IMG/VR virus record: IMGVR_UViG_3300032318_002324
Coordinates: 1-38,859 of that record
Length of the DNA: 38,859 bases
Origin: a virus
Lineage: Duplodnaviria; Caudoviricetes
Strand: one strand, 5' to 3'
Shown: positions 364 through 805 of the stretch, in pieces
Position numbering within the stretch: position 1 is the stretch's first letter
How the letters are laid out: each line of letters starts with the position of its first letter
The notes under the pieces: generated by a model
What the model saw: only the letters and a program-made list of their open reading frames with translations
What the model was told of the DNA's origin: nothing
Database searches by the model: none
Position numbers and translations under genes: made by a program

Positions 364-400
364 ATTTTAGCACAAAAAAAGGAGGGTATCAATCCCTCCT
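364..400 (-). promoter_or_regulatory. composite intrinsic terminator / sigma70-type promoter
   Basis: GGAGGG-ATTGATA-CCCTCC hairpin plus T7; TTGATA-17nt-TAAAAT with the -35 in the loop. Confidence 0.65.
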
Positions 401-406
401 CTTAAA

Positions 407-514
407 TCAACGCATTGCCATTGCTAGTTTTGCTTGATGTTTACGTTGTTCCTTTTCTTTTTGTTGTTTGATTAAAACTAGTTGCCAGTTGTTTTTAGTT
501 TTTACTTGTGACAT
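407..514 (-). CDS. 35-aa basic K/Q-rich peptide downstream of the glutamine riboswitch (not in ORF track)
   Basis: MSQVKTKNNWQLVLIKQQKEKEQRKHQAKLAMAMR; strong SD TAAGGAG; followed by a terminator. Confidence 0.7.
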   Translation of the reverse strand: MSQVKTKNNWQLVLIKQQKEKEQRKHQAKLAMAMR

Positions 515-547
515 TAGGTTTTCTCCTTAGTTGTTTAAATTAAAGAG

Positions 548-761
548 CGTTCCTTCAGTCGGCGTTTGCGTCTATTTTACACCTTTTGGGAGTAATCTGT
601 TTGATTTCCCAAATTAAATCATTACGAGTTTGTGGAGGCATATTTGCCTTCATAACTCTTCCAATAATCAATTGTGCCTGAAGGCAACTAAGTAAGAGTG
701 TTTCCATAGATGAACGATCCGTTCCGCGTCGGCTTACTTCCGACCCAAAATGGGTTGAACG
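548..761 (-). promoter_or_regulatory. tandem glutamine riboswitch-like aptamers (glnA RNA motif)
   Basis: Aptamer 1 (761-720): CGTTCA-ACCC-ATTTT-GGGT-CGGAAGTAAGCCGACGCGGAACG. Aptamer 2 (718-548): ATCGTTCA-TCTAT...ATAGA-CGCAAACGCCGACTGAAGGAACG. P1 CGTTC/GAACG, the CGGAAGTA junction and GAAGGAACG are hallmarks of the motif. Confidence 0.75.
555..707 (-). CDS. 50-aa ORF nested in the second aptamer (not in ORF track)
   Basis: METLLLSCLQAQLIIGRVMKANMPPQTRNDLIWEIKQITPKRCKIDANAD; ATG in the 5' P2 strand, stop in the 3' aptamer core. Confidence 0.6.
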   Translation of the reverse strand: METLLLSCLQAQLIIGRVMKANMPPQTRNDLIWEIKQITPKRCKIDANAD

Positions 762-774
762 TACTGTATATATT

Positions 775-805
775 AGTATAAAAATGAAAAAGTAGCAACA
801 GATAC
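775..805 (-). promoter_or_regulatory. NtcA-binding box with adjacent -10 element
   Basis: GTA-GCAACAGA-TAC (GTA-N8-TAC) at 792-805; TATACT at 780-775 on the minus strand just upstream of aptamer 1. Confidence 0.6.

Follow-up and report, generated by a model that had tools for sequence, protein, structure and literature searches.

A cyanophage gene nested in the P2 loop of interlocked cores resembling glutamine riboswitches

Results

An RNA element with two interlocked cores and a nested ORF

A stretch of 38,859 nt of viral DNA (IMG/VR record IMGVR_UViG_3300032318_002324, Caudoviricetes; hereafter the window, meaning the whole stretch) carries on its minus strand a predicted RNA made of two cores, an outer one like glutamine-I and, borne on its P3, an inner, circularly permuted one like glutamine-II. 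An ORF of 50 codons is placed in the P2 of this inner core. Sequence comparisons point to a real and widespread variant of the glutamine riboswitches, the function of which we infer.

At this locus the best DNA matches of the window are Kyanoviridae such as S-SRM01 and DSL-LC02, and since a PhotoRC-II RNA is present as well, the window most probably belongs to a T4-like cyanophage. The PhotoRC-II RNA (79 bits) is found at 5697-5603 (-), upstream of a 359-aa ORF that we take to be psbA, and a tRNA (anticodon UAU, by eye) is found at 27185-27114 (-). The element is bounded by a putative promoter near 798-770 and by a terminator-like hairpin at 403-377, and transcription would start near 762-764. 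Its parts, in the direction of transcription, are as follows.

792..805 (-), NtcA-type box GTA-N8-TAC (consensus from PMC3037559 and PMC6212724), overlapping a putative -35 hexamer at 798-793
770..775 (-), putative -10 hexamer TAATAT, recognised by eye
757..761 (-), 5' strand of the outer core P1, CGTTC, with partner 552-548, covarying in loci L670 and L671
743..755 (-), P2a hairpin of the outer core, empty in the window
735..742 (-), outer junction strand CGGAAGTA, with the long-range G740 (partner base 547) and the 5' half of the E-loop
727..734 (-), 5' arm of P3, common to both cores, with partner 564-557, showing compensatory and joint length changes
712..725 (-), inner permuted core, with GGAACG (725-720), the long-range G719, a short linker and CGTTC (716-712)
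706..710 (-), 5' strand of P2b, TCTAT, including the first two bases of the start codon
555..707 (-), nested ORF, 50 aa, phrog_504 / T4-GC 430 family
571..575 (-), 3' strand of P2b, ATAGA (codons I-D)
548..570 (-), CGCAAACGCCGACTGAAGGAACG, coding for D-A-N-A-D-stop and comprising the inner junction strand (570-565, with the long-range C568), the 3' arm of P3 (564-557) and, at 556-548, the 3' half of the E-loop with the 3' strand of the outer P1
541..547 (-), anti-ribosome-site strand CTCTTTA, its first base being the long-range C547, with predicted partner 529-523
523..529 (-), ribosome binding site TAAGGAG of the downstream gene
407..514 (-), downstream ORF of 35 aa, in which the first four codons of a DUF4278-like gene are fused in frame with the small gene behind it
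377..403 (-), hairpin like an intrinsic terminator, at the end of the unit

Covariation in the homologous elements

At least 491 sequences were gathered from three viral pattern scans (among the matches listed), 11 annotated phage regions, one genome scan and the window itself, and 340 of them were parsed into the full motif order, giving 273 distinct elements. The scan patterns fixed some bases, the base after the last GAACG being fixed in none. Left out were 119 genome loci and 32 viral loci that were truncated or had long linkers or variant junction strands; the excluded viral loci that hold a motif show the same layout wherever they are complete.

The first-pass annotation had assigned the ORF to the second aptamer of a tandem pair, an assignment that gave way to covariation, which places it instead in the P2 of an inner permuted core lying inside the P3 of the outer core. 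Indeed, the outer long-range pair (G740-C547 in the window) is Watson-Crick in all 273 elements, as C-G in 155 and as G-C in 118, and the inner one (G719-C568) in 269 of 273, whereas under the tandem reading the pair would be a G-G mismatch in 114 of the first units and a C-C mismatch in 118 of the second. On a tree of the 141 ORF proteins, which is a quick one made from short sequences and gives rough counts of change, both sides of the outer long-range pair change 6 times, always together, and the innermost P3 pair occurs as three Watson-Crick types with 11 joint changes; the two arms of P3 change length together. The P1 CGUUC/GAACG of the outer core closes a three-way junction, and two scans for P1 variants returned three loci, all three fitting only the nested fold: the first 5' strand (CGTTC) and the last 3' strand (GAACG) are jointly changed in L670 and L671, where the pairing is compensatory, and the two middle P1 strands in L672. 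Both strands of the outer E-loop are present at the base of P3, one in each half of the element, GAA being replaced by AAA in a minority. In a hand-picked alignment of 20 rows, from which the outer P1 was omitted because P2a was misaligned, 98.6% of the pairs are formed in the nested fold versus 86.3% in the tandem one.

Rfam searches and energies were also compared. An empty element (L025) aligned to the glnA model as one aptamer with a 46-nt insert in P3, scoring 42.7 bits (cut-off 35) and thus above either half alone. In the window only 763-716 was matched, with 34.2 bits against the gathering score of 35, and the split half was unseen; each half falls below that score. Standard scans miss or under-score the element because its cores are interlocked and split by genes. 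Nearest-neighbour energies after completion, -54.6 kcal/mol for the nested and -56.3 kcal/mol for the tandem fold with a free minimum of -65.0 kcal/mol, give the nested fold no advantage, and unconstrained free-energy folding recovered neither core. A plain tandem of aptamers, with the ORF splitting the second, would explain why each P1 strand occurs twice and why either half is weakly alignable by Rfam, and the long-range pairs of the C-G class are satisfied under either reading, but such an arrangement has no P3 and leaves each unit with half an E-loop, and being largely refuted by covariation, namely by the long-range mismatches and the three P1 variants, which rule out the tandem topology, it is very improbable.

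The nested ORF is conserved as a coding sequence

The geometry originally described for the ORF was found in the window almost as stated. The aptamer halves, said to be about 130 nt apart, are separated by a loop (705-576) of exactly 130 nt between TCTAT (710-706) and ATAGA (575-571); the ATG overlaps the 5' strand of P2, with A707 and T706 of the ORF (707..555) belonging to that strand, and the last codons, I-D-A-N-A-D-stop at 575..555, are aptamer core. The ORF had been placed inside the P2 loop, and this is true of most of it (43 whole codons), but not of its start, which lies in the stem, nor of its end, which runs through the 3' strand into the core. The stop codon is made of the last P3 base and of the GA of the E-loop strand.

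Conservation of the frame and of the TCTAT/ATAGA pairing, both proposed as checks, was found across the 141 elements bearing an ORF in P2b. The five P2b pairs are kept in 99% of cells (141, 141, 141, 140 and 135 of 141), with exchanges among T-A, C-G and A-T, and slid controls are paired in 38-54%. The ATG lies 3-6 nt into the P2b stem in 140 of the 141 ORFs, and the aptamer stop is in frame in an equal number while ORF length ranges from 147 to 204 nt. Translation would end at the aptamer TGA/TAA in 134 cases and earlier in 6, with a single read-through in S-SRM01, where a compensatory substitution in P3, from A-U to C-G, removed the stop; RNA structure therefore appears to have had priority over the ORF stop in this phage.

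The dN/dS of the insert, suggested as a further check, is about 0.16-0.24 (Nei-Gojobori, with the ATG and the aptamer-coded tail excluded), indicating coding constraint at the sequence level: 0.16-0.17 in the clade of the window (29 sequences, pS above 0.15) and 0.18-0.24 in the marine clade (47 of 62 sequences, those of modal length), with higher values, 0.39 and 0.51, among the closest pairs. As judged from these alignments, the nested ORF is a real gene under purifying selection. A chance ORF was ruled out by the conserved frame, the varying length and the dN/dS.

When homologues were searched by protein with the tail omitted (the best 80 of 448 and the best 80 of 497 loci), every one of the 159 loci had the 5' half of the RNA ahead of the ATG, and 157 of the 158 complete ORFs ended at the aptamer stop. 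More distant members of the family can stand alone in ordinary gene rows (L655 and L657), ruling out that the gene exists only inside the RNA. In another locus (L513) the nested ORF is intact and the last strand of the RNA, at its 3' end, is gone together with the downstream gene. The P2b ORF of L206, unlike nearly all others, is provided with an AGGAGG site of its own immediately within the stem, and its ATG comes later.

The nested protein

The family comprises phrog_504 with phrog_6471 and phrog_13397, and appears as T4-GC 430 in GenBank notes; these annotations of small cyanophage proteins do not mention nesting. The ORF of the window matches phrog_504 at E 0.0011, and 88 of 138 aligned members also match phrog_504. 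Mean identity across these 138 members is 25%, nested proteins being mostly 20-45% identical to one another, and two cysteines are invariant. The AlphaFold2 model (pLDDT 86.9) is a helical hairpin (helices 8-20 and 25-37) lying between the two invariant cysteines. A Pfam search of the 138 members found no family, with 1 weak match; an ESM Atlas search gave no usable match, Foldseek against PDB none (best E 2.5) and VIA-align no fold match (best Z 5.3, rmsd 2.8, 50 aligned). The top matches in a viral library are uncharacterised cyanophage proteins. Missing matches to a predicted model do not establish a new fold. The profile search with the family also returned two matches of about 2900 aa.

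The P2 loops as sites of optional genes

The 273 elements include 97 with an ORF in P2b only, 34 with a long P2a only, 29 with both and 95 with neither; the 5' end is missing in the other 18, 15 of which have a P2b ORF. A long insert in P2a is therefore present in 63 of the 255 elements whose 5' end is held, and in 62 of these 63 it is a paralogue of the nested gene; the P2a stem around the inserts is paired in 96% of cells, and presence of the insert changes 22 times on the ORF tree. Since 95 of the 273 elements carry no ORF, the gene would not be needed for the switch, which evidently also exists without it, and the nested ORF is probably an optional cargo. In two loci short P2 hairpins retain the start of the ORF, indicating that it was lost by deletion in at least some lineages, and with its repeated flanks the gene could be mobile by recombination.

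A third loop may be occupied as well. In L008 (611-1201, -) the linker loop of the inner P1 has an additional closing stem and holds a homing-endonuclease-like ORF of 197 aa (phrog_314, phrog_10820); similar ORFs are found in the linker loop of L019 and L038, with a short remnant in L004, and those of L008 and L019 read through the empty P2b to the same aptamer stop. The P2a of L071 (438 nt) holds an unrelated insert with, by eye, an HNH-type gene on the opposite strand. Full elements with genes in both P2 loops extend to Aurunvirus, another cyanophage genus (S-TIM5, 136157-137267; L652). Two empty elements (L672 and L109) lie in more GC-rich surroundings and could be host-derived or belong to another phage group, and in P-SSM4 (L126:1-101) the element is immediately preceded by a manA RNA.

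Comparison with known RNAs

The outer core resembles glutamine-I, that is, the glnA RNA (RF01739) and the Synechocystis gifB/IF17 leader (PMC6212724), in its P1 strands, its E-loop and its long-range G-C pair, which in glutamine-I is G23-C60 (PMC5393176, PMC6212724). The likeness to the gifB/IF17 leader goes further, including an anti-ribosome-site strand that starts from the long-range C, a DUF4278-type gene downstream and an NtcA-type box upstream (PMC6212724). The phage element differs from glutamine-I in being phage-encoded, in having a P3 extended into a second core and P2 loops with protein genes, and in the long-range pair, which is C-G in 155 of the 273 elements.

The inner core is closer to glutamine-II (Downstream-peptide RNA, RF01704; PMC6698751), sharing the CGC junction strand, GGAACGG, a C:G long-range pair and the lack of an E-loop. 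In glutamine-II the long-range pair is C19:G41, the ligand is contacted by C1, G18, C39, G40 and this pair, and an aptamer assembled from two pieces still binds (PMC6698751). Counterparts of all these contact bases are present in both phage cores. Differently from glutamine-II, the inner core shares its closing helix with the outer core and lacks both the pseudoknot formed 3' of GGAACGG and the linear order of strands, which are instead circularly permuted and joined by a short linker. RF01704 had no match in the window and sub-threshold matches in two homologues only.

A 'glnA' RNA annotated in cyanophage S-CREM1 (PMC9964418) is the same element and spans the whole empty form. A riboswitch survey counted only two glutamine aptamers in cyanophage genomes and considered that phages rarely use riboswitches (PMC5473149). 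The passages of both papers dealing with cyanophage glnA RNAs do not mention two cores or nested genes. Forms bearing the ORF have no riboswitch annotation in the 12 records examined that carry them. A literature search, mainly of open-access papers, found no paper on nested genes or interlocked cores here.

Homing endonuclease genes are found in peripheral loops of group I introns. The present element is similar in that an ORF lies in a peripheral loop of a structured RNA and overlaps core sequence, a likeness that extends to the homing-endonuclease-like ORF in the third loop of some loci. It differs in showing neither a recognised catalytic core nor a splicing signal, in carrying a small conserved protein as cargo and in that the RNA is a predicted sensor. 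Rfam found no intron family in the window, and no joined, insert-free RNA was present in the RNA contigs of 4 runs, which does not by itself prove its absence.

Upstream control and expression

Of 319 distinct regions, 223 have a GTA-N8-TAC box in the 100 nt upstream of the element, as do 120 of 128 in the class of the window; shuffled sequences gave about 9 and a downstream control 18. The box centres form a main cluster 50-55 nt ahead of the first C and smaller ones at other positions, and TATAAT-like hexamers in the homologues end mostly 7-10 nt before the same base. A promoter scan of the window did not list the putative promoter, the -10 TAATAT being below its threshold. NtcA boxes are known in general from cyanophage genomes (PMC3037559). 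At 827-792 (-) the window has an inverted repeat that includes two NtcA-type boxes, a perfect and an imperfect one, and precedes a run of T; this repeat, whose 3' arm is the box at 792..805, could double as terminator of the upstream gene. The role of the box in the window is less sure because it overlaps the putative -35 and is one arm of a possible terminator, and its position does not say whether NtcA would activate or repress.

In P-HM2 the P2a gene, the P2b gene and the DUF4278 gene are PHM2_179-181, which are transcribed during infection and shift together from the middle to the late class in the dark (PMC5082946, S2 Table). By our own count in that table they are 3 of the 16 genes, among 242, that change time class in the dark, and neither of their two neighbours does so. 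These data speak for a separate unit that responds to the state of the host rather than for the switch as such. In all 4 RNA runs examined, of 7 listed, there are near-identical contigs covering the element; the runs were chosen by this stretch and the contigs carry no strand, start or level, so that no support is drawn from them.

The downstream gene and its ribosome site

The first-pass annotation had a downstream peptide as the other output of the switch. An ORF is indeed present, its DUF4278 part being lost in the window: neither the YRG motif nor Pfam PF14105 was matched in the ORF at 514-407. YRG is found in 286 of 298 complete downstream peptides of the homologues, and 10 of the 12 without it are of the fused type. 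One of the nearest relatives with an identical nested protein (L492) has a DUF4278-like gene (gene 1) and, behind it, another small gene (gene 2); in the window, as in several further loci, gene 2 is preceded in frame by just the four initial codons of gene 1, and because of this fusion the putatively regulated peptide has no YRG.

Directly after the outer core, C547 begins a predicted 7-bp hairpin with the downstream ribosome site. In the local fold, removing C547 is predicted to abolish this hairpin, and withdrawing it raises the predicted access of the site from 0.01 to 0.37 in the window. A release of the ribosome site by the long-range C has been postulated for gifB (PMC6212724). Withdrawal of this C raises predicted access in 68 of 72 distinct leaders of the C class; in the class with G after the last GAACG (129 leaders) predicted access goes down in 60 and up in 11, and since the trend thus reverses or vanishes, an ON output of the downstream gene would not be general across classes.

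Discussion

A possible two-way switch

We propose a two-way translational switch, a reading that in our judgement could equally prove right or wrong, whereby bound glutamine would hide the start of the nested ORF and free the downstream ribosome site. At low glutamine the weak P2b would stay open and the nested ORF would be translated, the passing ribosomes keeping both cores unfolded; the downstream ribosome site would be paired for the most part, and termination at the aptamer stop would contribute some coupling at most. When glutamine is high, both cores would close and C547 would be drawn into the long-range pair, so that the downstream IF17-like or derived peptide would be made and the nested gene damped. 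The first-pass claim that ribosome passage and aptamer folding exclude each other is sound, as an elongating ribosome must melt the core that it is reading. Control of the nested gene is the weakest step, because the predicted change in access of its ATG is small, from 0.45 in the free to 0.33 in the bound-like state.

More broadly, the element might be a widespread phage architecture, a natural double aptamer in which a second, circularly permuted glutamine pocket is embedded and the P2 loops are sites for gene cassettes, one ligand reciprocally switching the translation of the gene inside and of the gene downstream, the whole under NtcA control, so that cyanophages would read the nitrogen status of the host at two levels; this is put forward tentatively, and we lean slightly against it.

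Other explanations

The nested gene may instead be a tolerated cargo, peripheral to a switch that controls only the downstream gene, much like a homing endonuclease gene in a group I intron, sharing its promoter and experiencing little control by glutamine. The common empty elements (95/273), the occurrence of the gene in either P2, in both or free-standing, the homing-endonuclease-like ORF in the third loop of L008, L019 and L038 and the small predicted effect on the nested ATG all agree with this. It accords less well with an ATG placed 3-6 nt into the stem in 140 of 141 cases and a stop in the core in 134 of 141 despite the divergence of the protein; moreover, any translation must unfold the switch, so that the two cannot be independent. 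On the whole we consider this explanation unlikely, though not to be neglected.

Translation might rather gate the switch, the nested ORF being mainly cis-regulatory and the downstream gene depending on the translation rate as well as on glutamine: ribosomes would unfold the cores, stop 8 nt before the anti-ribosome-site strand and couple to the downstream gene. In line with such coupling, 134 of 141 ORFs keep their stop in the E-loop strand, and a ribosome modelled on the nested stop raises predicted access of the downstream site from 0.01 to 0.14. However, purifying selection, the two invariant cysteines, the confident predicted fold and the free-standing copies argue that the product itself matters, and most P2a paralogues stop far from the downstream gene, which makes this explanation rather improbable.

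It is also quite improbable that in the phage the RNA is no glutamine switch, responding to another ligand or to a protein, or serving RNA stability or as a glutamine sink. Each half does score below the Rfam gathering threshold, and neither E-loop nor pseudoknot, the features of the two types known so far, is present in the inner core, but the ligand-contact bases are conserved in both cores, the empty element reaches 42.7 bits as a single glnA aptamer (cut-off 35), and the DUF4278 and NtcA context matches the host system.

Distribution and significance

If the two-way switch operates as predicted, a sensor domain can contain a gene under its own control, and the inner core would be a natural circularly permuted glutamine aptamer, possibly a cooperative one; cyanophage sensing of host nitrogen would thereby become testable. 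A search rule is also suggested, namely to allow gene-sized inserts in riboswitch loops.

The element was found in 14 of 14 cultured cyanophage regions examined, 11 of them chosen by DNA likeness and 3 by protein. A tblastn search with the nested gene returned 321 phage records at E up to 1, of which 7 are weak Escherichia-phage matches, and one junction pattern alone is estimated to occur in about 4000 IMG/VR stretches. The genome scan used too loose a pattern on 5 of 64 parts, with no cyanobacterial genome among those parts; 117 of its 120 loci were unparsed, 2 were chance-like and the remaining one (L415), a 3.8 kb contig from an Acetobacteraceae bin, carries the full element with two genes and is probably a misbinned phage contig.
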